A DNA stretch of 64,000 nucleotides from a virus. The DNA lies in IMG/VR virus record IMGVR_UViG_3300023176_002545; one strand, given 5' to 3'. Numbering within the stretch: the first letter of the stretch is position 1; every line of letters starts with the position of its first letter. The position numbers and the translations under genes were made by a program. Below the pieces are notes generated by a model. It saw only the letters and a program-made list of their open reading frames with translations, ran no database searches and was not told the origin of the DNA. Positions 32,884-49,800 of the stretch are shown piece by piece.

Positions 32884-33336
32884 ATGAGTAATAAAATCAT
32901 TTGCAGTGGTGCTATCGTCTGTTCACTAAAAACTAAGCGATTCCTGCTGCTACAAAGGACACATCAAAAGCAAATAGGCCAATGGGGATTAGTAGGAGGA
33001 ACTAATGACTCAAATGAGTCTCCATGGGAAGGTCTAACGCGAGAGATTATAGAAGAAATAGGTTCTTTACCTAACTTTGTTAAAGTTATTCCATTAGAGC
33101 TTTTTGTTAGTAATGATGAAAAATTTAATTTTCATACATATCTTTGTTTTGTAGATGAAGAGTTTATACCTGTTTTAAATGAAGAACACTCGGGATATTG
33201 TTGGGTTGATTTTGGTGTGTGGCCTAAACCCTTACATCAGGGGTTGCGAAATACTTTAAATAATGCTACAATAAAAACTAAAGTATTAACCGCAGTCGAT
33301 GTATTACAATATATCGAGGATCAGAATGATAATTAA
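32884..33336 (+). CDS. Nudix hydrolase
   Basis: Nudix box GGTNDSNESPWEGLTREIIEEIG; LNEEH.GY.W. Confidence 0.9.
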   Translation: MSNKIICSGAIVCSLKTKRFLLLQRTHQKQIGQWGLVGGTNDSNESPWEGLTREIIEEIGSLPNFVKVIPLELFVSNDEKFNFHTYLCFVDEEFIPVLNEEHSGYCWVDFGVWPKPLHQGLRNTLNNATIKTKVLTAVDVLQYIEDQNDN

Positions 33337-33856
33337 AGATTTATGGCCTACAAAATTAATACAGTTCAAATGGGATAATCAAGAACTATTAGGTAATGTT
33401 GTTAACGACATTATTCTAAAATTTCCCGATGGTATTAGTGATAGTGAACGTCCCGATATAGAAGAATATCCTGAAATTAAACCAGCATATGATTATGTTA
33501 ATGACTGCGTTGAAAAATTTTTAGAGGTTGAATTTCCTAAACAAGGAACTTATTCTTTTAGCTGGTGGGTACATGTTTATAGACAAGGTGCTACACATCA
33601 TATACATAATCACTTAGGCAGTCAGTTTACTGGTATACTTTATCTTGCAACACCTCCTGTAGGCGGAGAACTAGTATTACACGATCCAAGAGGTAATGCT
33701 AACAGAGGTTATAATAATAATTTAAAACATATGTTTGATCCTATTATATTAAAACCCGAAGCAGGTGATTTGTTTATATTTCCTAGTTTTGTTTGGCACA
33801 ATGTTGAAACTGTAAAAGACATGCGTATATGCATGCCATTCGATGTGTGGTGTTAA
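33326..33856 (+). CDS. 2OG-Fe(II) oxygenase (phage/TIGR02466-like; start revised to 33326)
   Basis: HHIHNH, FTGILYL, L.LHDPR, and P.AGDL.IFPS.VWH.V motifs; GAGGA RBS before the ATG at 33326. Confidence 0.8.
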   Translation: MIIKDLWPTKLIQFKWDNQELLGNVVNDIILKFPDGISDSERPDIEEYPEIKPAYDYVNDCVEKFLEVEFPKQGTYSFSWWVHVYRQGATHHIHNHLGSQFTGILYLATPPVGGELVLHDPRGNANRGYNNNLKHMFDPIILKPEAGDLFIFPSFVWHNVETVKDMRICMPFDVWC

Positions 33857-33857
33857 T

Positions 33858-34319
33858 ATGCTACTACCTAGTGTTAGTCTATCGTACGATGAATTTGTAT
33901 CTTTAATTAGAAGCGAGCATGCTTTTAATGAAGACATGGTTAGTTATATTGATCGAAAAGGCTTGCAACACTATTTAAAATTTGACGATTATATTTCATA
34001 TCTAGGTAAAATAGATAACTTATTGTTAGACAAGGATATAACAATTAAAGTAGAAAAATATGAAACTATGTGTAACTTTAATAAAGGCACTGTTCATATA
34101 TTTTATGCTAAAGAAGGAAGTCCTAGTTTTGACGAGCATTGTGATCCTGTAGACTTAATGTTGCAAGTAACACATGGTGTAAAAACAATAGAAATGAATC
34201 AAAGAGATTATACGTTGCATAAGGGAGAACGTTTATACATTCCTGCAAGTACATTACATCGTGCAACAAACAAATATGAAAGCATTATGCTATCTTGGGG
34301 TATAAATGACTGTACATAA
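33858..34319 (+). CDS. JmjC/cupin (ROXA/Cupin_4-like) putative protein hydroxylase
   Basis: SPSFDEHCDP.D..LQV.HGVK and L.KGE.LYIPA...HRA motifs (HxD...H facial triad). Confidence 0.75.
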   Translation: MLLPSVSLSYDEFVSLIRSEHAFNEDMVSYIDRKGLQHYLKFDDYISYLGKIDNLLLDKDITIKVEKYETMCNFNKGTVHIFYAKEGSPSFDEHCDPVDLMLQVTHGVKTIEMNQRDYTLHKGERLYIPASTLHRATNKYESIMLSWGINDCT

Positions 34320-35331
34320 TGCTACACAATATATGTCCTATATTAAAACAACCGAGACTTGTAATTTAAACTGTTCTCATTGTTTTACTAACGGTACAAG
34401 TGGACGTAAGATTTATTTTAACCCTGTTGCTACAGCAGACTTTTTTAATAGGCTGTATGCCAAAATGCCCAACAGTGGAATAGCGTTTGAGTTTCACGGT
34501 GGTGAGCCTATGCTTGCACCTGTAGAAGATATGAAACTGTTTCACAAACTGACTTACGATGTTTGGGGTGACAGAGCATACTATGGCATGACTACTAACC
34601 TAACTTATAAACTAACAGACGATAAACTTGATTTAATATACGGAATATTGCACAAGCGTTTGGGTACAAGTTACGATCCGTTTATACGTTGGGCAAATGA
34701 AAAACAACAAAAATTATGGGAAGATAATGTACGTCAACTAACAGCAGACGGTGTTGAAATCAAATGCTTTGTAAGTCTAAGCAAGGACATGATACAAGAA
34801 AACCCAGCAGATGTTATTGAATATCTTATTAGTTTAGGAATACAAGAAGTTGACTTTGAACGTTTAACTTCAGACGGTAATGCAGTACGCAATCCTAAAA
34901 TATTTCCTACAAATATAGAAATACAAGATTGGTATATGCTGCTTCATAAAGAAACACAAGCAAGAGGTTTGCGTGATAAAATATACAATCAAACACTTGA
35001 AAGTGTGTATATGAAGTTTGAAGAAGGCATTACTCGTGCAAGTACATTTTGTAGAGACTGTGAGCAAAAACTGTTTACTGTAAATGCAGATGGAACTATT
35101 GCAGGATGTCCTAACTCAGCACCTACAGCACACTATGCACACATAAGTGATGACATTGACACTGTGTTATATCATCCAGAACGTATGTGTAACATTGCTA
35201 ATGAATTAAATAGAAATCCCAAGTGCTATGAATGCCCTGTGCAGTTTTATTGTGGTGGCGACTGTTATAAACTTGCGTGGGAAGGCAATGTATGTCCTGC
35301 ACCTAAAAAACTTATGTTGGAGTTGGCATAA
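34306..35331 (+). CDS. radical SAM/SPASM protein 1
   Basis: CNLNCSHC, FHGGEP; SPASM-like CRDC...GCPN...CYEC...CGGDC...C. Confidence 0.92.
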   Translation: MTVHNATQYMSYIKTTETCNLNCSHCFTNGTSGRKIYFNPVATADFFNRLYAKMPNSGIAFEFHGGEPMLAPVEDMKLFHKLTYDVWGDRAYYGMTTNLTYKLTDDKLDLIYGILHKRLGTSYDPFIRWANEKQQKLWEDNVRQLTADGVEIKCFVSLSKDMIQENPADVIEYLISLGIQEVDFERLTSDGNAVRNPKIFPTNIEIQDWYMLLHKETQARGLRDKIYNQTLESVYMKFEEGITRASTFCRDCEQKLFTVNADGTIAGCPNSAPTAHYAHISDDIDTVLYHPERMCNIANELNRNPKCYECPVQFYCGGDCYKLAWEGNVCPAPKKLMLELA

Positions 35332-36365
35332 TGGATTTAATTATTAAACCAACAGAAGCGTGTAACTTTAAATGTACATTCTGCTCGTCAACTAAGATTG
35401 ACCCTAACAATGCAGGACTACTTGATCACGATTACATTTTTAGATTTTTAAAACGCTATCCTGATACAAACACTATTATTGTAAATGGTGGCGATCCACT
35501 AATGGTCGAGCCAGACTATTACTGGAAGATTATCAAGTTTTTAGATGAACATAATATGCCTGCAACTATTAGTTTTACTAGTAACTTGTGGCCATTCTAT
35601 GTTAAGCCGGACAAGTGGGTTGAACTGTTTAATCATCCACGCATGGGTATTGCTACTAGCTTCCAATACGGTAGTGGCAGACTTAAAGGCGATATGAGTG
35701 TGTTCACTGAAGAAGATTTTTGGAAAGTATCAGACAAGATGTTAGAGCTTGTAGGATACCGTCCTGAGTTTATTGCTGTTATTGATGATATGAATGATTG
35801 GAGTATTATTAAAACAGTTGAACTTGCTAAACAAATGGACGTAGTATGCAAAGTAAACTATGCTATGGCCAGTGGCGAACAAGGTTACACTTATCGCCTA
35901 AGCAAAATATATAAAGCGTATTTAGACATACACGAAGCAGGTCTTACTCCTTGGGAATATAACACACAACAAATGATACGCAGACTGCAAACTGACACAA
36001 CTACGTGTCCGCAGAACAGACACTGTGACGAAGGTATTAGAGCATTTAATCCAGGTGGTGACTATTACAGTTGTGGCAGCTTAGGTGATGACAAAGATTA
36101 TCCTATTGACTTTGAATATGAAATGTCAGGCGGATTTAGCACACCATTGCAAGATGCACCTGAACTTATATCAATGAAGCAGGCTTGTTTGACTTGTCCT
36201 ATGTTCCGTATATGTAACGGCTGTCGTAAAACCGTGCGAGATCATAAACGTGAAGGTGTTGTAGAAGATCATTGTTTTCAAATGAAACAACTTGCACCTA
36301 AGATACTAGAACTTAATGGTCAAGATCCTAACGAAGTTACACCTTATGTGAGAGAATATGACTGA
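35331..36365 (+). CDS. radical SAM/SPASM protein 2
   Basis: IKPTEACNFKCTFC, NGGDP; C-terminal C...C...YSC...CLTC...CNGC...C. Confidence 0.92.
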   Translation: MDLIIKPTEACNFKCTFCSSTKIDPNNAGLLDHDYIFRFLKRYPDTNTIIVNGGDPLMVEPDYYWKIIKFLDEHNMPATISFTSNLWPFYVKPDKWVELFNHPRMGIATSFQYGSGRLKGDMSVFTEEDFWKVSDKMLELVGYRPEFIAVIDDMNDWSIIKTVELAKQMDVVCKVNYAMASGEQGYTYRLSKIYKAYLDIHEAGLTPWEYNTQQMIRRLQTDTTTCPQNRHCDEGIRAFNPGGDYYSCGSLGDDKDYPIDFEYEMSGGFSTPLQDAPELISMKQACLTCPMFRICNGCRKTVRDHKREGVVEDHCFQMKQLAPKILELNGQDPNEVTPYVREYD

Positions 36366-37275
36366 GTTTACTGTTAGCATAAACCCTACATACTTTTGTA
36401 ACTTTCGTTGCGACTTTTGTTATCTTACACCAGAGCAACTAGCAAACAAACATCGTATTAGCCCACAAGAACTTGATCAAAGATTAAGCGAAATAACTGT
36501 GCCTATTACACACGTTGACTTATATGGCGGTGAAATAGGATTACTTGACAAAGATTACTTTTACAGCATTAAAAGTGTAATAAAAAAACACTTTGCTGGT
36601 ACTATAAATATTAATACTAACTTTAGTGCAAGACCGGATTTCTTTTTAGACGACGATGTGCATGTTAGTGTGAGCTATGATTTTGAAGCACGTGAGCTAA
36701 GTGACACTGTGTTAAGAAACATATTATTGTTTCCTAAAGATGTAAGTGTACTTGTTTTAGCAAGCCCAAAAGTATTAGCAACAGACGTAGACTTTATGAT
36801 TAACACATTTAATATGGTTCAGAATATTAAGTGTGTTGAGATAAAACCTTACAGCACTAACCAAGCAAATGCACACCCTGTTACACACAAAGACTTTGAA
36901 GAACACGTTAAAAAATGGATAGAGTCACCAATACAAAAGCAATTTGATTTTGTAAATGTTGACGAGTTAGAAGATGTATTAGATGGAAAACGTAATGCAT
37001 TTTCAAACGATCATGTTTATATTACTCCAGATGCTAAGTTTGGTGTGCTAGAGTTTGATGACAATGATAATGAATATTTTGAAAAATATAATAAATTTGA
37101 AGATTATCTATTTTGGGCCGATCAAGAGCCAACAAAAAATTTAAGTCCTATATGTCATAGTTGCGAATACTATGGAAAATGTTTAACAGAACATTATAGA
37201 TTTGTACATGACTTAGATAATGGATGCAATGGTTACAAAGGATTAATAGACTGGTATGCTAGACTGGAAGATTAG
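36358..37275 (+). CDS. radical SAM protein 3
   Basis: CNFRCDFC, YGGE; C-terminal CHSC...KC...C. Confidence 0.88.
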   Translation: MTEFTVSINPTYFCNFRCDFCYLTPEQLANKHRISPQELDQRLSEITVPITHVDLYGGEIGLLDKDYFYSIKSVIKKHFAGTININTNFSARPDFFLDDDVHVSVSYDFEARELSDTVLRNILLFPKDVSVLVLASPKVLATDVDFMINTFNMVQNIKCVEIKPYSTNQANAHPVTHKDFEEHVKKWIESPIQKQFDFVNVDELEDVLDGKRNAFSNDHVYITPDAKFGVLEFDDNDNEYFEKYNKFEDYLFWADQEPTKNLSPICHSCEYYGKCLTEHYRFVHDLDNGCNGYKGLIDWYARLED

Positions 37276-37675
37276 ACAACAACTTTTTAATTCTACTGCG
37301 GAAGAATTTACAGACGACTTAAATTTAGTTAATATTCGCACAGAAGAAGATAGTGTTACTTGGGCAGTAAAACACTTTAACGAACGTGTAGACGAATGGG
37401 TATATCCTGCTAAAAGTTATTTTGTAGCAATATGTTATGCTTATTGGATTAGTTTAGATTTTCGTTACGACTTTATTGAACTGCTAGACGACAAAGACTT
37501 GTTAGCAGGCAACGATCCATACTTTAAAACTTATAGTGAAGATAAAGCAACTTACAATGCTATACTTGATCAGGTTGAACTACCTGATCCTTCATCTCAG
37601 ATGGGAATGGTGCCCGACGTTCGATCGTATTATGAGGAAGAGATGATGTTTGACGAGTATCCCCTACATAGTTAA
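37256..37675 (+). CDS. hypothetical accessory protein (139 aa) in the radical SAM cluster
   Basis: Overlaps rSAM3 by 20 nt; acidic, aromatic-rich (YPAKSYFVAICYAYWI). Confidence 0.7.
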   Translation: MLDWKIRQQLFNSTAEEFTDDLNLVNIRTEEDSVTWAVKHFNERVDEWVYPAKSYFVAICYAYWISLDFRYDFIELLDDKDLLAGNDPYFKTYSEDKATYNAILDQVELPDPSSQMGMVPDVRSYYEEEMMFDEYPLHS

Positions 37676-38771
37676 AAAATTCACGTATAGGACATACGCC
37701 CGGCGGTAAGTCTCTTGCACGGTTCTTCCAGTCCCATTGTGTATAACAACGAAAACCACAACGATCAAAATAAGGACAACTTAAACAACCTACTTCATCC
37801 ATGTATGCTTGCATAAGGTTGGTGTTGTCTTTTCTAATATATGCATGATTAAAGTCATTGCGTGTATAACGATGCCAACGACAGTTTGCAGTTGTGTTGT
37901 CAGGGAATATTGTGAGCTTGTTTAAACTCATACAGTGCATTTGATTTTTATCTTGTGTTAATAATTCTCTATAAGGAAATACCATAGGATAGTTATCTGC
38001 AATATATTTCATAAACTTCAAATACAAACTATCACTTGGTACTAGATGATCGTAACCTGGATCAGGAATAAAATCATCAAAGAACAAATCAAAATTTTTG
38101 TACAAGTAATCAAAATACTCATCGCCAGCAAACAGTGCGTTAATACTGTCTGTTGTTGCTACTAGGTTAATAGTAGACACATAGTCTTTGAAACGTTCGA
38201 TATTTTTAGTGTATTGTCCGCCTGTAGGACGACCGCTTAGATCATAACTAGCAATCAGTTTACTTGGGATGTCTACTGCATTTAATTTGTCTAACAGTGT
38301 ACGTACATCTTCGTGATATTTGAATAAAAAGTTGCTGACCCAAACTACTTGTATTACATGTCCGTACTTGTCACAGATTTTTTTAATCTCAAGCATTAGA
38401 TCATAATACATAGGATACAGTGTTTCTCTTGCACGGTCTTGAAACAGCTCTCCGCCTACCATATTAAACTGCATAGCATGTACTTTGCCTTGCATCTTTT
38501 TACAGTGTGCTTCTACTAGAGGAAGTTTAGCAAGCATTTCAGGATATGTCATGCCCACTGTACTGTCTTTGTCATGAAAGCAAAAGTCGCACACAATAGG
38601 ACAGTTTTCAAATAGAGTGATTTCTATTTCGCCAATAAGAGGACGCTTACGCTCTAGTATCATATGCGTAACTGCATTTGCTGCTTGTTGTTCCGGAGTG
38701 TCTAATAAATGATCGTCGGTAACATTTTCAGGCATTAATGCTTTTAATATTTCTGTGCCACAACCGCCCAT
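37560..38771 (-). CDS. radical SAM/SPASM-like protein 4
   Basis: CPIVCDFC, VGGE; C-terminal HC...NCRW...CLSC...CGFRC...C. Confidence 0.9.
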   Translation of the reverse strand: MGGCGTEILKALMPENVTDDHLLDTPEQQAANAVTHMILERKRPLIGEIEITLFENCPIVCDFCFHDKDSTVGMTYPEMLAKLPLVEAHCKKMQGKVHAMQFNMVGGELFQDRARETLYPMYYDLMLEIKKICDKYGHVIQVVWVSNFLFKYHEDVRTLLDKLNAVDIPSKLIASYDLSGRPTGGQYTKNIERFKDYVSTINLVATTDSINALFAGDEYFDYLYKNFDLFFDDFIPDPGYDHLVPSDSLYLKFMKYIADNYPMVFPYRELLTQDKNQMHCMSLNKLTIFPDNTTANCRWHRYTRNDFNHAYIRKDNTNLMQAYMDEVGCLSCPYFDRCGFRCYTQWDWKNRARDLPPGVCPIREFFNYVGDTRQTSSLPHNTIERRAPFPSEMKDQVVQPDQV

Positions 38772-39895
38772 TATCTATAACCTATATTATTGTAAAGTGC
38801 CATTACGTTTTTATTTATAAGGCACTCGTTTTGTTGTATTACATCTGACATGAGTGTTTGTATTAGCCTTGAGTTACAATTTTCAACATACTCACAGTTG
38901 TTGCACACAAGGTTAGGTATATTTTTATACTGTTGTATTTGCAAGTTGTGCTTTTTATTCATTATACTTGTTAGCACACTGCCTTCTATTGGTATCTCAA
39001 AGCTCTCATGATATATTGGAGAGTTTTCATATAAGAAAGGAACAACATATAACTTGTCGTTATTAACAGTAACAATAACTTCGTTAAAGTTTTTATGACT
39101 ATTATCACTTTGTTGCCAAATAAAGTTTTCTTTAAAACGTTTTTCGTCTTTGTCTACAACACTTTGTATACTGTTATTCCAGCCTTGTATTATGCCTAAC
39201 ATTTTGTCAGGCTTGTTTACCATTGCACGTACTAGACTAGGTCCCCATTCTACAACAGTACCCCATTTTTTACGCACACTTTCTATTTTATCCAATACAT
39301 CATCGTCAACTTTTTGTGTAATATTACAAAGCAGACTTACTTCATACTCAACACTACTTGCTTCCATCATTGCAAGGCGTTTTTCAATAAGACTGTGTAC
39401 GTTTGAGTTATCCAACATATGCAAGTCAACTGCTATTTGTACATCAAAAGGACGCTCACAAAGATAACTGTTTTCAACATGTTTAATTACTTGTTCAACA
39501 CGTTCGTCTCCGATGAAAAAATCAACTGAACAGTTGTGTTGCAAGCCTCCTTCTTCAGGTAAAGCATCAACTATTTTACGAAAACGAGGATCTTCTAATA
39601 CAGGTATAATATTGCCGCTTGAAAAGAAATCGGTAGGTCCTACAATAATATCATCAAGCACATATTGTTCGGTTAGTTCATCAACTAATTGTGCTGCTAG
39701 GTCAAGTCCTAACCCTGTTCCGTAGTTTTTTCTGCGTTTAACAAAACAACCTGAACAGTTATATGCACACCCTTCAAGTATTTCAAGCATGAGTTGTATT
39801 TTTATTTTGTTTTGATCAGCAGGATTTACAAAACCTTCATCATGATAATCTGTTTTATTTTTGTTTAAGTAGTCTTGCCAATCTTTACGTAGCAT
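38771..39895 (-). CDS. divergent radical SAM-like paralogue 5 (start revised to MLRKDW at 39895)
   Basis: LEGCAYNCSGCFVKR, VGPTDFF; C-terminal CNNC...C...C. Confidence 0.8.
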   Translation of the reverse strand: MLRKDWQDYLNKNKTDYHDEGFVNPADQNKIKIQLMLEILEGCAYNCSGCFVKRRKNYGTGLGLDLAAQLVDELTEQYVLDDIIVGPTDFFSSGNIIPVLEDPRFRKIVDALPEEGGLQHNCSVDFFIGDERVEQVIKHVENSYLCERPFDVQIAVDLHMLDNSNVHSLIEKRLAMMEASSVEYEVSLLCNITQKVDDDVLDKIESVRKKWGTVVEWGPSLVRAMVNKPDKMLGIIQGWNNSIQSVVDKDEKRFKENFIWQQSDNSHKNFNEVIVTVNNDKLYVVPFLYENSPIYHESFEIPIEGSVLTSIMNKKHNLQIQQYKNIPNLVCNNCEYVENCNSRLIQTLMSDVIQQNECLINKNVMALYNNIGYR

Positions 39896-40964
39896 TATAG
39901 CTCTCCAATACACGTAAAGGATATACACAGTCTTTAAATTTATAGTGTTCCATATACTTTAGTACATGTTTACTCATACATATTTCTCTACGACTACAAT
40001 TTTCACAACTTGTAGTTTCTGATAGGTAATCTAGCTGTTCTAAATATAATGTTGTTTTTAAATCAGTCCAACTTTTAATGTCTGTAGGATTTTGCACACG
40101 AAACTCATCAGTTTTTATTAGTGCTGCTTCATAAACAAACGGAGTTGAATAAAACTCTCCTTGACTGAATGTATAGTTAAGTTCAAACGGACCACCTTGG
40201 TCTTTGTCTGCAATAGTCATTGCAAGATATTCTTTATTTGTATCGTTAAAAGTATTTTCAATAGTCTTAACCCAGTCATTAATTAAACGTTCGTGTATTA
40301 CACCTTTGCTGTAACGTTGATAGCTAGGTAGTGTTTCCAATATACTTTCGTATTCATCACGCACTATGCGACTTATTTCTGCTAGATTTTCAATATTGCT
40401 ATCTATATTAAATGTAATGTAATAATCTACAGGATCAGTAAACTTGTTTAGTACTTCATGTATACGTGCAATGTTATTTTTTCTATATGTAGGATCTAAA
40501 ACTTGTTTAGGATCTATTACAACTTGGAAACCATATAGAAAATCATCACGCTTTGGTATACTGTTGAACTTCTCTATAACTTGGTCAATGTATTTGTCGT
40601 CTGCTTGCAGTGTACTTGGCATTTCAATAGTAGTACAACGACTTACTAGCGTTCTAAAGTTTTCGTAATCTAGTAAATCTAATATATTCAAGTTACCAAA
40701 CACATCTGTAGGACCAATGTTTACACTTGTAAAGCGTATATTGTTAGACATAAACAGTTCTTGTGCATCAAGTACCTTTTGAATGTCTTCGTTTGTAACT
40801 TGTTGACGTCTACGATTAACAAAGCACCCTGCACAGTTATGTATACAACCATCAAGAACGTCTAGAGTCATGTTTACTTTTATTTCGTGAGCATTTGCCA
40901 CACCAATATTGTAATCTTCGTGTCCTCTAGTTGTTTCCCAATAGTTATTTTTTACGATTGGCAT
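39885..40964 (-). CDS. divergent radical SAM-like paralogue 6
   Basis: LDGCIHNCAGCFVNR, IGPTDVF; C-terminal CENC...C...C. Confidence 0.8.
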   Translation of the reverse strand: MPIVKNNYWETTRGHEDYNIGVANAHEIKVNMTLDVLDGCIHNCAGCFVNRRRQQVTNEDIQKVLDAQELFMSNNIRFTSVNIGPTDVFGNLNILDLLDYENFRTLVSRCTTIEMPSTLQADDKYIDQVIEKFNSIPKRDDFLYGFQVVIDPKQVLDPTYRKNNIARIHEVLNKFTDPVDYYITFNIDSNIENLAEISRIVRDEYESILETLPSYQRYSKGVIHERLINDWVKTIENTFNDTNKEYLAMTIADKDQGGPFELNYTFSQGEFYSTPFVYEAALIKTDEFRVQNPTDIKSWTDLKTTLYLEQLDYLSETTSCENCSRREICMSKHVLKYMEHYKFKDCVYPLRVLESYNAT

Positions 40965-42126
40965 GGTATACTTTCTTTATTTCTTCTAGTCGTTCATCGC
41001 CGTCTTCAGTTACTAAGAACTTTTTGCGATAACCTTGCTTGTCTGCTTCAACTGAATAGTCTGTCCAGTCATACATTTCTGCTGCACTTTTATTATAGTT
41101 ATAAATGTTCTTCATCATATTTTCTTTAGGTGCAATACAAGTGTCTACACCTAAGTAATCACGTAGTAATATTACTTTTCTGTTATAACAACTAAAGAAC
41201 AAGTCGCAATTTTCACACTCTGTACCTTTTGCACGTTCCATTTGTGTTAGTGTCTTGTAATATGCTTCGTCTAAGTCCTTAACTTCAAACTGTTCATCAT
41301 ACAATGCCATGTTTTCATACATAAATGGACTCAAATACCACTTGCCCTTCTTAAAGTTAAGTACTGTGTAGTTGTGTCCAGCATGAGAATGGTCAACCAT
41401 GATGTTGTTTAGATGAGTGTCTTCAGGTAGTGCTTCAAAAAATGCATTAAACTGGTTAAGTGTACGCAATATTATGTTAGGTTTATGGCTACGACTAACA
41501 CTTGGTATAAAGTCAATGGTAGTATCAAACTCTTTAACTACAAAATCATGTATTTGTTCATAGTCTAAGTCATATTGTCTAATGTTTACAATGAATGTGT
41601 ATGTACATTCGTGTTTTAGGTTAGCATCAATGTACGCAATACAACGTTTGAGCTGTTGTATGTACAATATGTCCTTGTAACGCATTGGATCTGTTGCAAT
41701 ACCTACCTCTATTTCAGTATCAGTGTTAACATTGGCGTGTAAGAAGTTAATCCAACGCTCTAAGTAGCTCATGTCTTGCTCTAAAAAGGTTGTAGTGAAC
41801 GCAAGTATAGGAGAGTTTTCATTTATCATAGACAACAAGTCGGGATCTTGCATTACTTGGTAAAAGTTTTCGCTAGACAGGCAGTCTGTTGGGCCTATTA
41901 GTACTTCATCTACTAAAATTCCCTTGTCAGTTATGCGTTTTACAAACTCACGGCACTGTTTTAAGTGATTTTCTTCAGGAGCATTGCCTCTACGGTGTAC
42001 AAAACAGCCCGGACAAGCGTGTATACACCCGTCTAACACATCTAATTGTATTTTTACGGCACTAACTGGTTTAGTTTGTGTTTCTGTTGTTAGCTCGTAG
42101 TACAAGTTGTTCTTAATGACTGGCAT
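40945..42126 (-). CDS. divergent radical SAM-like paralogue 7
   Basis: LDGCIHACPGCFVHR, IGPTDCL; C-terminal CENC...C...C. Confidence 0.8.
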   Translation of the reverse strand: MPVIKNNLYYELTTETQTKPVSAVKIQLDVLDGCIHACPGCFVHRRGNAPEENHLKQCREFVKRITDKGILVDEVLIGPTDCLSSENFYQVMQDPDLLSMINENSPILAFTTTFLEQDMSYLERWINFLHANVNTDTEIEVGIATDPMRYKDILYIQQLKRCIAYIDANLKHECTYTFIVNIRQYDLDYEQIHDFVVKEFDTTIDFIPSVSRSHKPNIILRTLNQFNAFFEALPEDTHLNNIMVDHSHAGHNYTVLNFKKGKWYLSPFMYENMALYDEQFEVKDLDEAYYKTLTQMERAKGTECENCDLFFSCYNRKVILLRDYLGVDTCIAPKENMMKNIYNYNKSAAEMYDWTDYSVEADKQGYRKKFLVTEDGDERLEEIKKVYHANRKK

Positions 42127-43141
42127 TTAGGTACTCCTTGGGCAATACACACTCTGTTAAACCTCTATCTTGCATGTAAAACAGTACATTACGCTCTGCA
42201 CAGCTCATTAAATGAGGACAACTTGCACATTCTTGAGTATTTTCAGCATATGCAAGGTTGCGAGACAAGAAATCATCACTGTTTATGTTTTGTACTTCAA
42301 AGTTTGGTGTACGTTGCAGTATAGCATCGTACAAAAACGGATTCATATACAGTTTACCATTGTAAAAACTGTAGTTAGAGCATCCATAGCCATTAAACTG
42401 TGCATCAAACATAGTATACAGGCTTTTGTACTTGGGGTCAATCTTTTGTTTGCTTAGTTCTTGTATAAACATTGGCAAATATTTACTTACTTTGCCTCTG
42501 CTGTTACGATCGTTAAGGAAACTTGGTAGTATAACTACAGGAGCATTGAAATCTTTCATGGTCATATCACATAAATGATTGTAATCAACACTATCAAATA
42601 TGCCTGGATAGTAGTTTACTCTAAACTGCACACTGCCTTGTTTAAACAGTTCAAGTTTGCGACACATATCTTCAACATCGCCCTGCAAGTAACGTTCAAT
42701 GTCGAGCACTATCTTAAAGTCTATGTCAGGTGTGCGATCTAGTCCTTCGTAAAGGCTCCAAATCTTAGTGTGTTTAGCAAGTATTGTGTTGTAGTCCTGT
42801 AGTAGCGTTGAGTTAAAACTTAATGCTGCAATGTTGTACAAGCGTTTCATACTAGGATGCTCCATCAACTCCCAAAAGTTTTCAGCATCAAATATATCAG
42901 TAGGTCCTATTACAACATCGTCAGGTGTATATGCACTAGATTCTAGTATATCACAAAGAGTTGTTAAGTGATCAGCACTGGTTAAGTTTTTGCGTGGAAT
43001 AAAACAGCCAGGACACTGTTGACTACAGCCGTGTAGTATGTCAGCATGAACTTCAACCCTAAGAAAGTTGTTATCCTTAGGGCTTACACCTTCAACGTAG
43101 TTATTAAATCCTGATGGAGTTGCGTTTAAGTTAACGAGCAT
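42113..43141 (-). CDS. divergent radical SAM-like paralogue 8
   Basis: LHGCSQQCPGCFIPR, IGPTDIF; C-terminal CASC...C...C. Confidence 0.8.
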   Translation of the reverse strand: MLVNLNATPSGFNNYVEGVSPKDNNFLRVEVHADILHGCSQQCPGCFIPRKNLTSADHLTTLCDILESSAYTPDDVVIGPTDIFDAENFWELMEHPSMKRLYNIAALSFNSTLLQDYNTILAKHTKIWSLYEGLDRTPDIDFKIVLDIERYLQGDVEDMCRKLELFKQGSVQFRVNYYPGIFDSVDYNHLCDMTMKDFNAPVVILPSFLNDRNSRGKVSKYLPMFIQELSKQKIDPKYKSLYTMFDAQFNGYGCSNYSFYNGKLYMNPFLYDAILQRTPNFEVQNINSDDFLSRNLAYAENTQECASCPHLMSCAERNVLFYMQDRGLTECVLPKEYLNASH

Positions 43142-44312
43142 TGACGATTTTCAAGGCATCGTCATTCCATTGCTCTGTGCTGTCAATAAACGGATTGTAC
43201 ATTTCAAGTACTTCTAGCGGCATCAGGCACTCATGCATATTCATAGCGTCTTGTGCTTGGAATATCAGTCTGTTTGCACATGCTACAGCATACTTACAAT
43301 CAGCACAATCCTTAACAGTGGAAGACTTTGCCAAGCCTTTTGCTATTAGTTGATCCCTCTTTGCCAATATTTCTTCAAAACTTAAACCTGTTACTTCTAA
43401 TTCTTTATGTTGTGTAAAGAACGCTTGTTCGTGTAGCATAACATTTAGGAATACACGAGGTGCATCAAAGCCAGGAATAATAGTTAGCCCTATGAAGTTC
43501 ATTGAGTTACAGTACAAGTTAGCCATACTCATTGTAACATCAGCATAGTTATCTTGATCTACTACTTCTTTTAAGAAGTTGTTCCATGCTACTAGATTCT
43601 TACGCTGGTGTAATACACTTGGTGCTCTAGAGAACGCAGGGTTCATTTCTAGAATAGTTTCGTAATCTTCAAGAATCTTGTATAGCAGTTTGTTGTAGTT
43701 TTCTTTAGTTAGATGTTTTTGCATTACATTACTTGCTTGTAATGTCCAACTCCAGTCAATGTTTTTAGGAGTTTCATTTGCAAAGAACTCTAGTTTTGCT
43801 TTTATGTCTTTGAAATATTCTTCATCATTAAGTATACGGTCAATATCACCTACTGGCATAATAAACTCAATGATCATTTCATCTCTGTATTTTGCAGGAT
43901 CGTCAAGTATTGAAAATACTTCACGTAGTCTTTCCATGCTTACATCGTCTATTTTGCTAGGTGTAGCAATACGTGCTTTTGTATGTTCACGCATGATATC
44001 CTGTATAATAGGATTGTTAAGAATATTGTCTGTATTATTTGCTGAGAAAAGATCAGTTGGACCAATAACAAACTCACGTAAATTAAGTCCTGTGCGTGTT
44101 ACGCCGTCTGCAAGTTCTTTTGCAGTAGTTAACATTGCATCCATTGTAGCAACGTCTTGATTTTTGTTAACAAAACAACCTAAACAACCATGGTTACAAC
44201 CAGTGAGTCCTTCAAAGTTAATTAGTACGTCAAACTTTTGTGCATGACTAGGAGGTAGACTCTCAGGTCCACTGTATCTCATCTGCTTGCAGTATGATTG
44301 TTGCATTGTCAT
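43131..44312 (-). CDS. divergent radical SAM-like paralogue 9
   Basis: LTGCNHGCLGCFVNK, IGPTDLF; C-terminal CADC...C...C. Confidence 0.8.
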   Translation of the reverse strand: MTMQQSYCKQMRYSGPESLPPSHAQKFDVLINFEGLTGCNHGCLGCFVNKNQDVATMDAMLTTAKELADGVTRTGLNLREFVIGPTDLFSANNTDNILNNPIIQDIMREHTKARIATPSKIDDVSMERLREVFSILDDPAKYRDEMIIEFIMPVGDIDRILNDEEYFKDIKAKLEFFANETPKNIDWSWTLQASNVMQKHLTKENYNKLLYKILEDYETILEMNPAFSRAPSVLHQRKNLVAWNNFLKEVVDQDNYADVTMSMANLYCNSMNFIGLTIIPGFDAPRVFLNVMLHEQAFFTQHKELEVTGLSFEEILAKRDQLIAKGLAKSSTVKDCADCKYAVACANRLIFQAQDAMNMHECLMPLEVLEMYNPFIDSTEQWNDDALKIVNAR

Positions 44313-45019
44313 TCTGTTATTCCCTCATCAAATAATTCTAGCATATTATTTGCAACACCATGTTTTATTAATGTGTTATATAAGTCAGCACCTTGATACT
44401 TACTTTCATTGTTAAAAACTCTAACATTTAAGTTACTAGTTGGCCACGGACCAAACTTATGTCCTAACAAATACAAAACATCAATAGCATATGTTGCTAT
44501 ATATACAATATTTAGCCCGATTTCTGTATCACTATCAGTGTATTCTAACTCTTCTGGCACAAGTTCTTTATACTTGTCGTTATATTTGCTGGCTTGATCA
44601 ATACAGAACAATGCAACGTGTTGCATTTTGTCTAACAAATCGTCAAATAATTTTCCATGTTCATTAATATACTCGTCGATCATATCATTTGACCACAGAG
44701 TATTCATTGCAGCATCAACATTGTTATATTCTTGACCTAATTTTCTTTTTGCAATTAGTGCTATAATTCTAGCTAGTAAAGGTGCTTCAACTAGAAAATT
44801 AATTTTAATATATTCATTTAGTAGTTCTGCATCAACAGTGTCAAACTGTACTTTAAAGTTTGTGTTAGCAATATAGACTAAGATATGTTTTACAGATAAT
44901 ACTTTTTTACTTTCTTCATAATTTACATGAAGAGTGTAATCATCACTATCTGCTTTGATCTTATAAATTTCTGCTAGATCTGTTGGTTTTAAAGGTAGTA
45001 TATAACTTTGTGTTGACAT
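44309..45019 (-). CDS. hypothetical accessory protein (236 aa)
   Basis: ATGA-coupled to paralogue 9; no recognisable motif. Confidence 0.7.
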   Translation of the reverse strand: MSTQSYILPLKPTDLAEIYKIKADSDDYTLHVNYEESKKVLSVKHILVYIANTNFKVQFDTVDAELLNEYIKINFLVEAPLLARIIALIAKRKLGQEYNNVDAAMNTLWSNDMIDEYINEHGKLFDDLLDKMQHVALFCIDQASKYNDKYKELVPEELEYTDSDTEIGLNIVYIATYAIDVLYLLGHKFGPWPTSNLNVRVFNNESKYQGADLYNTLIKHGVANNMLELFDEGITE

Positions 45020-45027
45020 TGTGTCTC

Positions 45028-46080
45028 CTATACCAGTGGTTTTACTTTAAACAGCAAATACGGTATACGACTCTTACGCTTGTAGAAGAATTCTACTTCA
45101 CTCCAAGCATTTCTAAGTGCTTCGTTATTTGCAAAATTAAATCCGCCCTCTGCTATTTGTACTACAATAGGAATAGTTTTAGCAAATTCTTTGTATACTT
45201 CTTCATATTCCCAATCTTCGTGGTTGTTAATGAGTTCTAAGAGTTCAGCATTATTGCCAACATCGTTCCAAAAATCTCTTAACACATAAAGTGCTTGCAT
45301 GCGATTTTTATTTTGGAATGTATCTTTAACAAATTGTACTTTGTCCCATGATGAATTACCGTTTGCATGGAACCAATCAATAATACCGTTAATAACACTA
45401 ATATAACCAATTTTATTTTGTAGCATACCAATTACTTCATCAATCATTTTTTCACTGTGAACAGTGAATTTTTCACGCAAATGATTTTGTGTTACTAAGT
45501 TAATTTCTGCATACGTTTCATTTTCGTTATACTTGTCATTAATAAAGAAAAGTATATCATAACCCCAATGTTTACTACTTGGAGTGCCCATGTTATGCCA
45601 TTCATTTTTAGCGTAAACATCTTCAACACAACCGTTAATATCATTTTCTGTAAATGTAGTGTATGTTGCGTATGTAATATCTCTTTGGAACACTAACTTT
45701 AAAAAGTCTTTTACTACATCTTTAACATCTTTGTTAGTTGCTGTTTGTAGTAGAGATGCAATATACTTTGCATATACACGAATTAAATCTAATGCATCAT
45801 CAAATAATAAAAACTCTTTGTCATTGTTTGACAAATATTCCCATGTGTTTATTTGATCAGTTGTAGTGAACGAAAGCATATCCGGATTTGCATTAGGATA
45901 ATCTGTAAGTAGTGTATTAACATACGAGTCTCGTACTTGTGAGTGTCCTTCCGGTGCTACTAACACCATTTTTCTTGTTTGATCGCCTGCCCAAGGACTC
46001 TCTGCTAAAGCACTTACCATAGAGCTAGACTTTCCTAAATATTTCTTATTGTTGATATAATAAAAACTTTCACCTATCAT
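45028..46080 (-). CDS. hypothetical accessory protein (350 aa)
   Basis: TAATG-coupled to the upstream CHxS-repeat gene; no recognisable motif. Confidence 0.7.
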   Translation of the reverse strand: MIGESFYYINNKKYLGKSSSMVSALAESPWAGDQTRKMVLVAPEGHSQVRDSYVNTLLTDYPNANPDMLSFTTTDQINTWEYLSNNDKEFLLFDDALDLIRVYAKYIASLLQTATNKDVKDVVKDFLKLVFQRDITYATYTTFTENDINGCVEDVYAKNEWHNMGTPSSKHWGYDILFFINDKYNENETYAEINLVTQNHLREKFTVHSEKMIDEVIGMLQNKIGYISVINGIIDWFHANGNSSWDKVQFVKDTFQNKNRMQALYVLRDFWNDVGNNAELLELINNHEDWEYEEVYKEFAKTIPIVVQIAEGGFNFANNEALRNAWSEVEFFYKRKSRIPYLLFKVKPLV

Positions 46081-46463
46081 TATCTTCTTCCCCTTGAGCC
46101 GTGACAGCTATAATGGCAACTACTATGACAGATTCTCCAATCAAAATATGTGTTAGTTAGTCTGCCTTCTATTTGGTTAACTGTGCGTGAAATACAGTTA
46201 GTTGCAAAATTTTGTACCTCACTTGCATATACTTTTAGATTATCTCCAATGTTATTTGGAAGATCTGCTGTACTATATGTTCCTTGTCCTGCGTTTACAT
46301 ACTCATAACGTCTGTTACCGTAAGCAGTTCCAGAACCCCAACCACTTACGTTTGCATAATAGCACGTAGCATTGAAGTTAATAGTCTTGTCAAAAGATCT
46401 AAGACGTAGATACGCATTGTTATAGTATCTTGTTTCTAAAGAAGCGTGTGACTCGCCTGCCAT
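46080..46463 (-). CDS. candidate precursor/substrate protein A2 (127 aa) ending CHSSCHYSCHGSRGRR
   Basis: C-terminal (CHxS)3 repeat; paralogue of the next gene; in an operon with the rSAM genes. Confidence 0.75.
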   Translation of the reverse strand: MAGESHASLETRYYNNAYLRLRSFDKTINFNATCYYANVSGWGSGTAYGNRRYEYVNAGQGTYSTADLPNNIGDNLKVYASEVQNFATNCISRTVNQIEGRLTNTYFDWRICHSSCHYSCHGSRGRR

Positions 46464-46837
46464 TACCTTCTCCCTCTACTGCCGTGACAACTATAATGGC
46501 AACTTGTATGACAAATACGAAAATCAAAATACTGATTAGTTATTCGACTTTCGATTAAATCACAAGTTCTTGTTATAGCATTTAGTGCCTGGTCTATCAT
46601 ATGTCCTGCATCTACTAGTGTAGTATTGGGATACACGTTTCCGTTGTAATCACTGTTAGGAGCATTTACATACTCATAACGTCTGTTACCATATGCAGTA
46701 CCTGCGTTGTAACCGCCATAGTTTTGATTAGTATAAACTGTGGCTGCTACGTTTACAGTTTTATCAAACCCTCGCAATTGAGCACCAGCATTGCCGGTAA
46801 AATAATCTCTTGCGGATGTTCGATTCATGTTTCCCAT
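46463..46837 (-). CDS. candidate precursor/substrate protein A1 (124 aa) ending CHTSCHYSCHGSRGRR
   Basis: Shares FDKT.N, GTAYGNRRYEYVNA and YFD.RICH.SCHYSCHGSRGRR with A2; starts 3 nt after the giant fibre stop. Confidence 0.75.
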   Translation of the reverse strand: MGNMNRTSARDYFTGNAGAQLRGFDKTVNVAATVYTNQNYGGYNAGTAYGNRRYEYVNAPNSDYNGNVYPNTTLVDAGHMIDQALNAITRTCDLIESRITNQYFDFRICHTSCHYSCHGSRGRR

Positions 46838-46840
46838 GGA

Positions 46841-49800
46841 TTATACCTTAACTTCAACTACATCTGTACCGTCTTCAATAGCAACACCAATTAATAATGT
46901 GTATTCTGCTATAGTACTTAGTTCGTCTATAGCACGGCCTGCACCGTCCTGATCAGCAATAATATACTGACCTTTCTTAGCAGAACCGTTAATCTTACAT
47001 GGAACACGACCTTTTAGTGCAACGAACGGCCACATTGGATCATCTCTGTTATCGTCTGTTTGGTTCATCATCAAACCTGGCTGTGTTGATACAACGCCTG
47101 CTAGTTTCATGCCTTCTTTGTATAGTGTAACTTCTTTGTCGCCACCAATACCTAGTACTGTACCTGGAGCATACACTGCGTCTGCTTCGTATTTCTCTGC
47201 CAAGTCAGCCCAGTTAGCACTTGCTGCTGTACCTTGATAAACACCGCTGTTGTCAACGTATGAAACATCTGTACCGTCACGTCTAAACTGAACAATACGA
47301 TCGGAGTTAGCACCAGCTGCCATGTAGAATCTGTTAGCATGATATTCAATCTTACCAACGTCATTACCTGGGTTACCAGTCCATGTTTCGTTTGCGTTTT
47401 CCATAAAGCGGATGCCTGGTGAGTTACCATCATTGTTGTATGAACGTAGTGCCCAGTTACCATCTTCGTTTAGGAAACCTTGTGATGCATCGTCTGCATA
47501 TAGTCTACCATAGATAGTGTTTGAACTGTTGTTTAAACGTAGTTCACATGATCCAGTATTTGCAGAACGGAACGCCATTGCGTTTGTTTCATTTGGATAA
47601 ATGTGCCAGCCTGCGTAGTTGCCACCTTGCCAGTAAATACCTGAGTTGCTTTCAATGCGTACCCAGTTATCAACATATAGCTCGCCTGCAATGTTTGCAC
47701 CGTCGGAACGTGTTTGAACTTTCCAACTACCATTGTGCATCATTTCAGTTTGGCCGCCGTGTACACCGTAGAACAACCACTGGTTATTTACATCGTTGTA
47801 GATACCAGTTGCTGTACCGCCATCATGCATGAATACTGCACGACCATCAATGCTAAAGCCTTCCCAGTTACCATAACCACTACCGCTAATTTGGATTGAA
47901 CCGTAGTCGCCTGTTGGTTCTCTTAAGTAACGTGTAGTTTGGTTACCAACTGCAATAAACTGTTTAACAACTAGTCGACCATCTGTTGTAAGTGCCATAG
48001 CACCAGCTGCTACGCCGTCACCATCATGTCTCCACTTCCAACCACGGTCTGTGTCGTTGTTCATTGTAAAGGTCATTGCATAGTCATTCAACCAACCCAT
48101 TGTTTGACCACTAAACATACCAATTGAGTATGAGCTGTTGTTCCAAACACGTAGTTTGTCGTAACTATCGCTGCCTTCGCCGTCAATGTAACCAATGTTA
48201 TAACGTGTGCCACTTGCAAACAAGTCTGGGAATGTACCAGCGTTTAGATTGCTTGCATTACGGAAGAATGCACTATCATTACCATCTAGTAAGTCTGCAT
48301 CTAAGCCGCTGCCGCTACCATCGTTACCAGCATGCCATACTTTGTATGCATTAGCACCCATTGACCAACCGCCAACTGCTAGATCGTTTGTACTTCCGTC
48401 TAGACCAAAGTGTACAGCATAGTCGCCACCAATATGGAATGTTAAGAATGCATCATATTGGTTAGCACCGTTACCTTGATATAGTTGTAATGTGTTAACT
48501 TCACCAGTGTTTTGAATTGTTGTTGCAGGAGCACTAATTGTAAACACACCGCCACTAAATGCAGCACCAGTATCAACACGTAGGAAGCTACTTGCATGCA
48601 ATCCGTCTAGTAGGTCTGCGTTTAAGCCTGAACCTGCACCGTCGTTAGCGTCAGTCCAAATAGCACCGCCGTTAACATAACCAGTTGTAGCGTTAAAGCT
48701 ACCATTAACATCTAGGTTATAAGTACCGCTTGGATCTTTGTTAATACCAACTTTACCATCACCGCGTACTGAGAATACAATGTTACCATTAGTTTGACTT
48801 ACGTCATTGTTAACACGGAAGAATGTGCTTGCCGCAGCATTGTTTGAGTTAGTGTCAAGTCTTACGTTAACGTTGTTGTAAGAGTTAATGCTTAAACTAT
48901 CGCCAGCACCCCAAGTATCGTTACGTGAACTAATACCATGGTTTACATAGCCGCCAATTGCACCGTAGTTTCCATCCCAGTCAAAGCTAATGCCATGTAC
49001 TTTTGCAAGTTCGCCTGTTGTGCCACCGCTTGAAATAAAGCGTCTATTAGTGTCAATAGTTTCAACGCCGCCTACATTATAACTGTTACCGTCAATAGCA
49101 CCAGTTAGTGTAAGTTCAGCAGCAACTAAGTTACCACCAACGTACAAGTTCTTACCAAAGCTACCACCACCGTCTACACGTAAAGCACCTGTTGTAGTGC
49201 TTGTTGCTTGGTCAGCGGAGTTAACGTGCAAGTAACCACTTGATGCACCAATGTCAATAGCAGTTGCAGCACCACCAATGTTGAGTGTAGTAACTGTATC
49301 GTTTAATAGATCAAATGTTGCTTGGTTAGTACCCAAACTACTTGCTTGTGTAATAACGTTTTTGTTAAGTCTAATAGCATCGCCTGCGAAACTTGCTACA
49401 AGTTCGCTTGTTTGGATGCCGCTACCTGAACCAATACTTTCGGAACCATAAATGTTAACTATAGCACCAGTACCTGAACCAGTACCTGGGTTTGGTTTTA
49501 GATTTAGTTCAGAACCGTTAACGTTAAACTGTCCAGTAATTGGACCTTTTACACCAATTGTACCTGATTGTTTAGAACCTTGTGAACCTCTACCAAACTC
49601 TAGTTTGTGAGTATGTGCATCAGTACCACTTACTTCAACGCGATTAACTTGTGTTGTTGAAGTACTGCCTGAAGTTCCTGAATAGCCTGTGTCAATAAAC
49701 ACAGATCCTGCTACACCACTACCAGTGCTTGCACCGCCTTGTACTGTTAGATCTGCACCTTGCTTGTTAGTACCTAATGCATTTGGTGCTTTGATTACTG

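Follow-up and report, generated by a model that had tools for sequence, protein, structure and literature searches.

A 64,000-nucleotide stretch of viral DNA (IMG/VR virus record IMGVR_UViG_3300023176_002545; the whole stretch is referred to here as the window) carries at positions 33299-46837 a cassette of 16 tightly packed or overlapping genes, which occupies ~13.5 kb and encodes nine radical S-adenosylmethionine (SAM) enzymes, two oxygenases, three accessory proteins, and two paralogous small proteins ending in a Cys- and His-rich tail. This inventory was first proposed from the DNA letters without database searches (the sequence-only reading), and each of its elements was found in its place. 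The cassette is interpreted here as a system for the multi-enzyme maturation of a virion protein whose C-terminal tail would be the substrate; a probability of about 0.6 is assigned to this interpretation. The tail is read as a substrate because it is hyper-conserved on a variable carrier, because it is strictly linked to SPASM-type radical-SAM enzymes, and because it is accompanied by oxygenases of the hydroxylase type.

The two tailed proteins are encoded on the minus strand. Protein 1 (127 residues, 46080..46463) ends with CHSSCHYSCHGSRGRR and protein 2 (124 residues, 46463..46837) with CHTSCHYSCHGSRGRR. They are 53% identical, and their last 16 residues, C-H-x-S-C-H-Y-S-C-H-G-S-R-G-R-R, are the same except for position 3. 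The CH..CH pattern occurs in exactly two open reading frames (ORFs) of the window, namely these two. The C-terminal part of protein 1 matches phrog_35144, and the same protein gives a weak match to the Pfam family Phage_30_8 with an expectation value (E) of 0.004, below the cut-off. A tail profile was searched against 1.84 billion cluster representatives (clusters at 50% identity, E up to 0.001) and matched 306 clusters; among the 150 listed, nearly every match extends to the final residue of the protein. Nearly all of the 148 sequences read keep three Cys-His pairs with a period of four and a terminal R-x-R-R; those that do not are a few with shortened or frame-shifted ends. The fourth position of the repeat is Ser in repeat 1 and Ser, Asn, or Ala in repeats 2 and 3, so that Cys-His is the constant feature rather than His-x-Ser. 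The N-terminal 100-300 residues of the tailed proteins are too diverged to be aligned between lineages, and the tail resembles a core peptide in its behaviour. Indeed, a tblastn search with the tailed protein found SURPRISE13 only, because the shared part is short, and the wider family emerged from the profile search. Synonymous differences separate the paralogs and their relatives in the DNA that encodes the tail, the codon of the last Ser, for example, being AGT or TCA; conservation therefore acts on the protein and is not a product of gene conversion. The tail is under purifying selection.

A short N-terminal helix with the pattern R-[FW]-x-x-x-V (NRFADYV, DRWEDYV, NRFINRV) was spotted by eye in many long-form tailed proteins from phages and Bdellovibrionota (L012, L017, L020, L022, L030, L031, L035, L036, and L049; L-numbers, L001-L060, are labels of cassette-bearing loci in other genomes or contigs, L001 being SURPRISE13). 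It is a possible candidate for an enzyme recognition element.

Among the cassette genes, conservation is highest for rsB, whose product shares 55-61% identity with proteins from 15 GenBank phage records, distributed among the phiKZ-like Ralstonia/Burkholderia group (RSL2, RSF1, FLC4, FLC6, FLC8, SURPRISE13, and RsoM3USA), Atu_ph07, Phosso, and pPa_SNUABM_DT01 (DT01). Near-identical DNA is absent from GenBank phages, where a megablast search with the 14-kb cassette region gave no match. Four lineages were opened (SURPRISE13, Atu_ph07, DT01, and Phosso), and all of them show the order cupin, rsA, and a tailed protein of 178-306 residues, after which come the remaining radical-SAM genes, the oxygenases, and the 139-residue gene. 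The tails are CHSSCHTSCHGSRGRR in SURPRISE13 gp72, CHSSCHASCHNSRSRR in Atu_ph07 gp170, CHTSCHTSCHSARGRR in DT01 PA10_00065, and CHTSCHASCHSSRSRR in Phosso 289. A scan of IMG/VR yielded 20 loci and an exact-protein look-up one 219-kb metagenomic contig; the tailed gene is accompanied there by cassette radical-SAM genes as far as the contigs extend. It stands right after cupin-rsA on the 219-kb contig and in all IMG/VR lineages outside the clade of the window, except that in L011 a 333-residue ORF lies between rsA and the tailed gene. At none of 22 phage loci and about 20 loci of Bdellovibrionota, nor in the four lineages of cultured phages, was the tailed protein found without radical-SAM neighbours, and the co-occurrence seen in IMG/VR and GenBank phages reveals a conserved gene set, as expected from the proposal of the sequence-only reading that the region is one functional cassette. 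The core set consists of rsA, rsB, rsC, rsD, the 139-residue protein, and the tailed protein; the cupin and the 2-oxoglutarate (2OG) oxygenase are usual in phages. The number of rsE copies per cassette ranges from 0 to 5, and some lineages have a second rsA-like paralog.

This second paralog is distant (24-26% identity) and lies downstream of the tailed gene at 11534-12658 of L011, an IMG/VR phage lineage; it is also present in the Bdellovibrionota copies L033, L034, L044, L045, L048, L051-L053, and L055. Two dihydrofolate reductase genes (SURPRISE13 gp77 and gp78; L001 19903-21080) are located between rsD and rsB in the RSL2/FLC/SURPRISE13 group only, and the other lineages lack them. A 4.3-kb contig of Dysosmobacter segnis strain BX15, a gut Firmicute isolate assembly (L039), encodes a tailed protein ending with CHASCHDSCHSARGRR, rsD, and rsB, and possibly derives from a phage in the culture.

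Parts of the cassette have been listed in genome papers. The FLC6 and SURPRISE13 genomes include radical SAM, Fe-S oxidoreductase, cupin, and 2OG oxygenase genes without function, and the FLC6 copies were described as similar to RSF1 proteins (PMC8066314, PMC11898562). These are the same genes, but those papers make no connection between the enzymes and the tailed protein, a virion protein, or a shared cassette. A 183-kb marine T4-like genome with "12 radical SAM genes" (PMC5332604) probably belongs to the lineage of the window. No paper was found in the literature that describes the cassette, or a phage radical-SAM system of such kind for virion modification or for peptides made by the ribosome and modified after translation (RiPPs).

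The cassette also occurs in predatory bacteria. The rsB profile found 37 loci in a collection of species-representative genomes, 27 of them in metagenome-assembled genomes of Bdellovibrionota, and most of those carry rsA-rsD, rsE, the 139-residue gene, and one or two tailed proteins. On a 2.45-Mb contig of a Bacteriovoracaceae genome, the genes beside the copy encode LolA, signal peptidase II, two peptidases of the matrixin type, a DinG-like helicase, and an FGE-type protein; phage structural genes are absent within 10 kb of it. A second Bacteriovoracaceae genome has a partial cassette with the same flank on a 2.84-Mb contig. These two copies (L049, 5236-12469; L060, 8881-12427) thus share one chromosomal site, marked by the matrixin peptidases and the DinG-like helicase, on Mb-size contigs. 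L060 is devoid of the part with the tailed protein, rsD, and rsE, and a 2355-residue RCC1/Big_2 repeat protein is encoded just upstream of the remainder. The other matches of the rsB profile are labelled Rhodobacteraceae, Marinovum, Methanobacteriota, and Rickettsiales, and most have fibre-type genes; they look like mostly phage contigs binned with cells.

The link to the virion comes from Atu_ph07. Published proteomics of the virion identified its gp170 (31.89 kDa) by 8 unique peptides at 35% coverage (Attai et al. 2018, PMC6102473, Table S5), and the recomputed mass of the 296-residue tailed protein of this phage is exactly 31.89 kDa, identical to that of gp170. Bands 1-9 of the gel contained the protein, with the highest abundance in band 1; other proteins of 29-32 kDa peak in bands 7-8, and sheath and baseplate proteins of 117-137 kDa peak in band 2 (PMC6102473). 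The enzymes and helpers, gp164-169, 171, and 172, are absent from the virion list, and the fibre-like gp176 and gp177 are present in it (PMC6102473). The "virion-protein modification" half of the sequence-only reading agrees with these proteomic data, which bear on location; modification would be a step beyond them. We infer a virion location also for the tailed proteins of the window phage.

Several lineages have fibre-type genes beside the cassette. In the window, the minus-strand operon is headed by a giant fibre-like virion protein of 4221 residues (46841..59506), and tailed gene 2 starts 3 nt past the stop of this context gene. In the window clade, L010, L026, and L027, the tailed genes come right after orthologues of the giant fibre gene. 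In L011, L021, and L023, the gene immediately upstream of the cupin encodes a protein that resembles the C-terminal 500 residues of this fibre; in Atu_ph07, such a protein is encoded a few kb upstream of the cassette. In Phosso, a giant gene for a virion structural protein is located a few kb upstream, the DT01 cassette is near a central spike gene, and the L023 cassette is flanked by Mtd_N, DUF4815, and Peptidase_S74 proteins, a Peptidase_S74 fibre gene closing it. Overall, fibre or baseplate genes surround the cassette in at least six phage lineages. The giant fibre of the window itself contains, at 54988-58792 (minus strand), nine repeats with the invariant pattern C-x-R-D-x-G-x-x-[ILV]-D-A. 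This Cys-repeat motif is found in the close relatives L003, L005-L007, and L009 and in no other cassette-bearing lineage; five rsE paralogs are likewise confined to the window clade.

Exactly nine ORFs of at least 150 residues in the whole window have the motif CX3CX2C, the site of the [4Fe-4S] cluster that cleaves SAM, and all of them lie within 33299-46837. Each combines a single N-terminal CX3CX2C with a C-terminal set of auxiliary-cluster Cys, CX2CX5C..C. Three are on the plus strand, rsA (341 residues, 34306..35331), rsB (344 residues, 35331..36365), and rsC (305 residues, 36358..37275). The minus strand encodes rsD (403 residues, 37560..38771) and five divergent paralogs, rsE1 (393 residues, 43131..44312), rsE2 (342 residues, 42113..43141), rsE3 (393 residues, 40945..42126), rsE4 (359 residues, 39885..40964), and rsE5 (38771..39928). 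The start of rsE5 is probably an ATG near 39895 and not the GTG at 39928, and its relatives are called at 375 residues. The position of the GGE-type SAM-binding motif, which follows beta-strand 2, is occupied by GGE in rsA, rsC, and rsD, by GGD in rsB, and by an invariant GPTD in the five rsE paralogs and their homologues. The full SPASM set of rsA, CX2CX5CX3C, is invariant in nine homologues, and rsD has seven conserved C-terminal Cys. Conversely, rsC and rsE1-5 have CX2CX5C plus one Cys only, which is a partial or twitch-like set; rsC, whose C-terminal motif has four Cys, is conserved in all lineages.

The profile searches agree in part with these motifs. Against PF04055 (gathering threshold 29.5), rsB passes with 36.3 bits, rsC reaches 26.2, rsA 20.5, and rsE3 and rsE5 15-18 bits, and rsD, rsE1, rsE2, and rsE4 give no match. 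The SPASM family TIGR04085 (cut-off 27) is matched by rsA with 29.3 bits; rsB (19.0) and rsD (15.1 bits) remain sub-threshold despite their Cys pattern. rsD matches phrog_1802, "radical SAM domain-containing protein", with E 3e-26. The rsE paralogs are 20-25% identical to each other (rsE5 is 21-25% identical to rsE1-4), and sequence searches with them give weak matches only. rsE1, rsE2, and rsE4 are assigned by motifs and paralogy, the latter two also by phrog_31457, and the family has more than 275 metagenomic homologues.

Structure and distant homology point to enzymes that act on peptides or proteins. An AlphaFold2 model of rsE3 (40 homologues; predicted template-modelling score, pTM, 0.77) was matched by Foldseek to anSMEcpe, EpeE, SuiB, ChlB, CteB, PqqE, and SkfB with a probability of 1.00 and template-modelling scores of 0.4-0.5. 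The rsA family profile aligns over nearly its full length to anSMEcpe 4k37 (E 2e-8), and its alignments to ChlB and CteB cover the radical-SAM core at the N-terminus; the top named relatives of rsA are DarE, anSME, PapB, DynA, and HxsB. The rsB profile matches anSMEcpe over the full length with E 2e-6. For rsC, the nearest named families are mixed and include QueE, viperin, WgkB, and MqnC-type or futalosine-type enzymes. On these matches and the rsE3 model, rsA, rsB, and the rsE family resemble peptide or protein maturases and not nucleoside or cofactor enzymes. A defence-system reading was rejected, the similarity to prokaryotic viperins reported by PADLOC being generic and limited to the radical-SAM N-terminal core.

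Two oxygenases precede rsA on the plus strand. The 2OG-Fe(II) oxygenase (185 residues, 33299..33856; the start can be 33299 instead of 33326) matches PF13759 with 65.6 bits against a cut-off of 27 and TIGR02466 below threshold, and its homologues are present in most phage copies of the cassette. The JmjC-type cupin oxygenase (158 residues, 33843..34319) matches PF08007 JmjC_2, a family which we take to comprise protein hydroxylases such as YcfD, with 29.6 bits against a cut-off of 22. Its HxD...H triad (H99-x-D101 and H139) and K114 are invariant in nine homologues, and it lies directly upstream of rsA in all phage lineages examined. The sequence-only reading had called for profile searches of these proteins, which recovered rsB, rsA, and both oxygenases above their cut-offs; the other radical-SAM proteins stayed below threshold or were not matched.

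According to the proposed mechanism, the (Cys-His-x-Ser/Asn/Ala)x3-Arg-x-Arg-Arg tail of a dedicated protein, present as two paralogs in the window phage, would be processed inside the infected cell by 4-9 radical-SAM enzymes with SPASM or twitch-like auxiliary-cluster domains (rsA-rsD and the expanded rsE family) and by 1-2 Fe(II)/2-oxoglutarate oxygenases. Small accessory proteins, for example acc139, would probably serve as substrate-presenting partners. The likely chemistry would start with hydrogen-atom abstraction and proceed to C-S or C-C cross-linking or to oxidation at Cys, His, and neighbouring residues, and the oxygenases would hydroxylate. The tail is compatible with thioether or C-C links that start at Cys or His, with oxidized Cys or Ser, and with hydroxylated His or Arg, and its sequence cannot decide among these. 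The matured protein, without the enzymes, would then enter the virion, probably at the periphery of the fibre or baseplate. A bolder proposal, to which we give low odds, is that the (Cys-His)x3 tail is turned into a covalent cross-linker or metal-holding device, a "rivet" or protein-derived metallocofactor that would fasten the small protein irreversibly either to itself or to a partner in the fibre or baseplate, shared by large phages and Bdellovibrio-like bacteria for attaching to or breaching the prey envelope. Such a rivet would explain the form of the Atu_ph07 protein found at the top of the gel.

Several observations weigh against maturation of the tail. The modification of any member of the tailed family is deduced from sequence and context. 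The sample buffer of the Atu_ph07 experiment, as described, held no reducing agent (PMC6102473), and for this reason the gp170 at the top of the gel could consist of disulfide-linked oligomers of an unmodified three-Cys tail. The chromosomal cassette of Bacteriovoracaceae has no virion genes nearby, so that a virion role cannot be shared by all copies and the basic function cannot depend on a virion. The sequence-only reading had suggested peptide maturases rather than nucleoside or cofactor enzymes; this holds for rsA, rsB, and the rsE family, whereas rsC and rsD lack a clear affinity to peptide maturases by sequence and are not assignable. A RiPP recognition element (RRE) or PqqD-like domain, also looked for at the suggestion of that reading, was not detected in the cassette by Pfam and NCBIfam searches of the 16 ORFs. 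The AlphaFold2 model of tailed protein 2 (22-row alignment; confidence score, pLDDT, 56; pTM 0.28) was too poor for a fold search. Finally, Cys and His are classical metal ligands, and the tail could work unmodified. The predicted complex of rsA and tailed protein 2 (score 0.01, mark 0.32) is not evidence either way.

This last property of Cys and His leads to a first alternative, in which the tail is a metal- or Fe-S-binding module and the small protein would donate clusters, carry electrons, or act as a scaffold for the radical-SAM enzymes; the real substrate would then be another molecule, for instance the giant fibre. Three Cys and three His within 12 residues are typical ligands, and the tail is predicted to be unstructured. 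Nine Fe-S enzymes need many clusters and reductant, and marine relatives of the window phage are reported to have Fe-S assembly genes (PMC5332604). The nine Cys repeats of the giant fibre could be targets in the window lineage alone; lineages without Cys-repeat fibres nevertheless retain the cassette. This alternative also leaves the invariant R-x-R-R without a role, and C-x3-C-x3-C with adjacent His corresponds, to our knowledge, to no known ferredoxin, Rieske, or scaffold motif. In addition, the tailed protein of Atu_ph07 is in the virion and the enzymes are not, which would be odd for an enzyme helper. On balance, a metal-binding module is considered unlikely.

A small product is a second alternative. 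The tailored 16-residue tail would be freed as a RiPP-type metallophore, cofactor, or toxin, in the way in which PQQ and mycofactocin arise from the C-terminal part of a precursor. A C-terminal core, many tailoring enzymes per core, and SPASM domains of the type of PqqE/MftC-like systems speak for it, as does the presence of the cassette in Bdellovibrionota chromosomes, outside virions. However, the cassette has no detectable gene for a protease, a transporter, or immunity, and none of the 16 ORFs matches a peptidase or a transporter or exporter family. The carrier is large (124-319 residues) and itself a virion component in Atu_ph07, and the setting among fibre and baseplate genes recurs in at least six phage lineages. 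The absence of a detectable protease, exporter, or RRE makes a secreted RiPP-type natural product the less likely half of the sequence-only reading, and a released small product is regarded as quite improbable. The least probable alternative by far is a modification of nucleic acids or nucleotides (hypermodified DNA, tRNA, or a product like that of viperin) with the tailed protein as a co-travelling structural zinc-binding protein: it is suggested by the QueE, viperin, and futalosine-type enzymes among the best named matches of rsC, by the viperin-like N-terminal cores of rsA-rsC (PADLOC), and by the two dihydrofolate reductase genes within the SURPRISE13 copy, but the viperin and QueE similarity is confined to the first 60-150 residues, for the most part the common radical-SAM core, the full-length and structural matches are to protein and peptide maturases, and the tailed protein co-occurs with the enzymes across phages and bacteria, including the cupin-rsA-tail order.

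The three accessory genes and the layout of the locus complete the description of the cassette. acc139 (139 residues, 37256..37675, plus strand) is conserved in phage and Bdellovibrionota copies and matches phrog_20737 with E 3e-35; it has no assignment in Pfam, NCBIfam, or the ESM Atlas. acc236 (236 residues, 44309..45019, minus strand) has clear homologues in L010, L026, and L027 and shows a weak but repeated similarity to Atu_ph07 gp169 (E 0.003) and to a 235-residue protein in L023 (E 0.024); domain, PHROG, and NCBIfam searches gave no family match, and an ESM Atlas look-up gave nothing usable. Homologues of acc350 (350 residues, 45028..46080, minus strand) are restricted to the window lineage, L010, L026, and L027, and the protein occurs only alongside short-form tailed proteins. 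No family match was obtained for it, and pairwise BLAST against neighbours of the same size in SURPRISE13 and L023 revealed no similarity.

The window derives from a large marine T4-like myophage that encodes tail sheath, tail tube, large terminase, and UvsX-like and gp32-like proteins. Its gp15-like tail completion protein is nearest to those of Phosso, Atu_ph07, and PA5oct (30-34% identity). The cassette is bounded by a plus-strand gp15-NUDIX backbone and by the convergent minus-strand gene of the giant fibre. The plus-strand order is 2OG oxygenase, cupin, rsA, rsB, rsC, and the 139-residue gene; on the minus strand, the fibre gene is followed downstream by the two tailed paralogs, acc350, acc236, rsE1-rsE5, and rsD. 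PA5oct has the same backbone (structural protein, gp15-like protein, NUDIX, one small gene, and a convergent fibre gene) without the cassette genes, which identifies the cassette as an insertion at that junction. The NUDIX gene of the conserved backbone (32884-33336) overlaps the 2OG oxygenase by 38 nt if the latter starts at 33299. The convergent 3' ends of rsD (minus strand) and acc139 (plus strand) overlap by 116 nt (37560-37675), and an overlap of ~90-120 nt is kept in L003, L004, and L024. The T4 late-promoter motif TATAAATA is not enriched, with 3 matches against 7.4 expected, and scans for sigma-70 promoters and terminators gave counts at or below the shuffled expectation; transcription units were judged from gene overlaps only.

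Radical-SAM maturation of whole proteins is documented in a handful of cases, and no report was found for a component of a virus particle. Here ~13.5 kb, with nine Fe-S enzymes, two oxygenases, and helpers, would be devoted to one 16-residue tail. Unrelated jumbo phages and predatory bacteria retain the kit at 55-70% identity, which implies strong selection for the protein chemistry involved. If the interpretation is true, a new post-translational modification may be involved, and a function may be given to many genes annotated as "hypothetical" or "radical SAM" in marine viromes. The cultured carriers (Atu_ph07 and Phosso, RSL2/RSF1/FLC/SURPRISE13, and pPa_SNUABM_DT01) make the system directly testable, and the tail is a convenient tryptic peptide.

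Several known maturation systems share features with the cassette. RiPP clusters in general encode a short leader-core precursor; here the candidate substrates have 124-319 residues, and the conserved part is at the extreme C-terminus. The maturases of ranthipeptides (SCIFF) and sactipeptides, such as PapB, CteB, and SkfB, have SPASM domains and form thioethers from regularly spaced Cys, and the structural matches include CteB and SkfB, the top profile matches PapB. However, the tail has three Cys instead of six, each paired with His, and no Asp or Thr acceptors at a fixed spacing. The cassette also differs from these clusters in having no RRE, leader peptidase, or exporter and several non-orthologous radical-SAM enzymes per substrate. 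The scores are low, 40.3 bits for PapB NF047865 (cut-off 340) and 19.4 bits for the ScfB-related orphan-maturase family NF040492 (cut-off 855). Overall, the equivalog scores are 5-20 times below the cut-offs of the compared families, and the analogies with SCIFF/ranthipeptides, sactipeptides, HxsA/B/C, and triceptides drawn by the sequence-only reading all miss these cut-offs by a wide margin. A Cys-rich whole protein, CrpA, is modified by CrpC through SPASM thioether cross-linking (PMC13692751).

The likeness to anSME (anaerobic sulfatase-maturating enzyme; PDB 4k36-4k39) is at the level of fold and architecture only. It is the best full-length profile match of rsA and rsB and the best structural match of rsE3, and this radical-SAM/SPASM enzyme has no RRE and oxidises a Cys or Ser in a folded protein substrate; rsA-rsC, as anSME, start at the cluster motif. 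Against TIGR03942 (cut-off 349), rsA scores 42.1 and rsB 37.5 bits. The cassette has no sulfatase gene. The sulfatase signature is (C/S)-x-P-x-R, and the tail does not contain it.

The HXS antiphage system (families TIGR03976-03979) offers a third comparison. There, HxsA is matured by the radical-SAM enzymes HxsB and HxsC together with HxsD, with a change of +8 Da on SHRSS, one repeat (Li et al., Nat Commun 2026, PMC13128918). A full-size, basic-rich protein with His-x-Ser repeats, more than one radical-SAM enzyme, and a small partner are found in both systems, the tails of the window having three H-x-S and RGRR. Conversely, an invariant Cys precedes each His in the cassette tails, Ser is replaceable, the repeats are strictly C-terminal, and 4-9 radical-SAM enzymes are accompanied by oxygenases. 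HxsA resides in the periplasm of the defended cell, whereas the cassette is encoded by phages and predators, and its tailed protein goes to the virion. The HxsB family (cut-off 370) is matched by rsA with 33.0 bits and the HxsC family (cut-off 267.9) by rsB with 23.3 and rsC with 15.4 bits; HxsA and HxsD gave no NCBIfam match at E up to 1 for both tailed proteins, two homologues, acc139, acc236, and acc350. These profile scores place the cassette outside the HXS, SCIFF/ranthipeptide, and anSME families; among the characterised systems, HXS is its nearest analogue in logic and anSME its nearest relative in sequence and fold.

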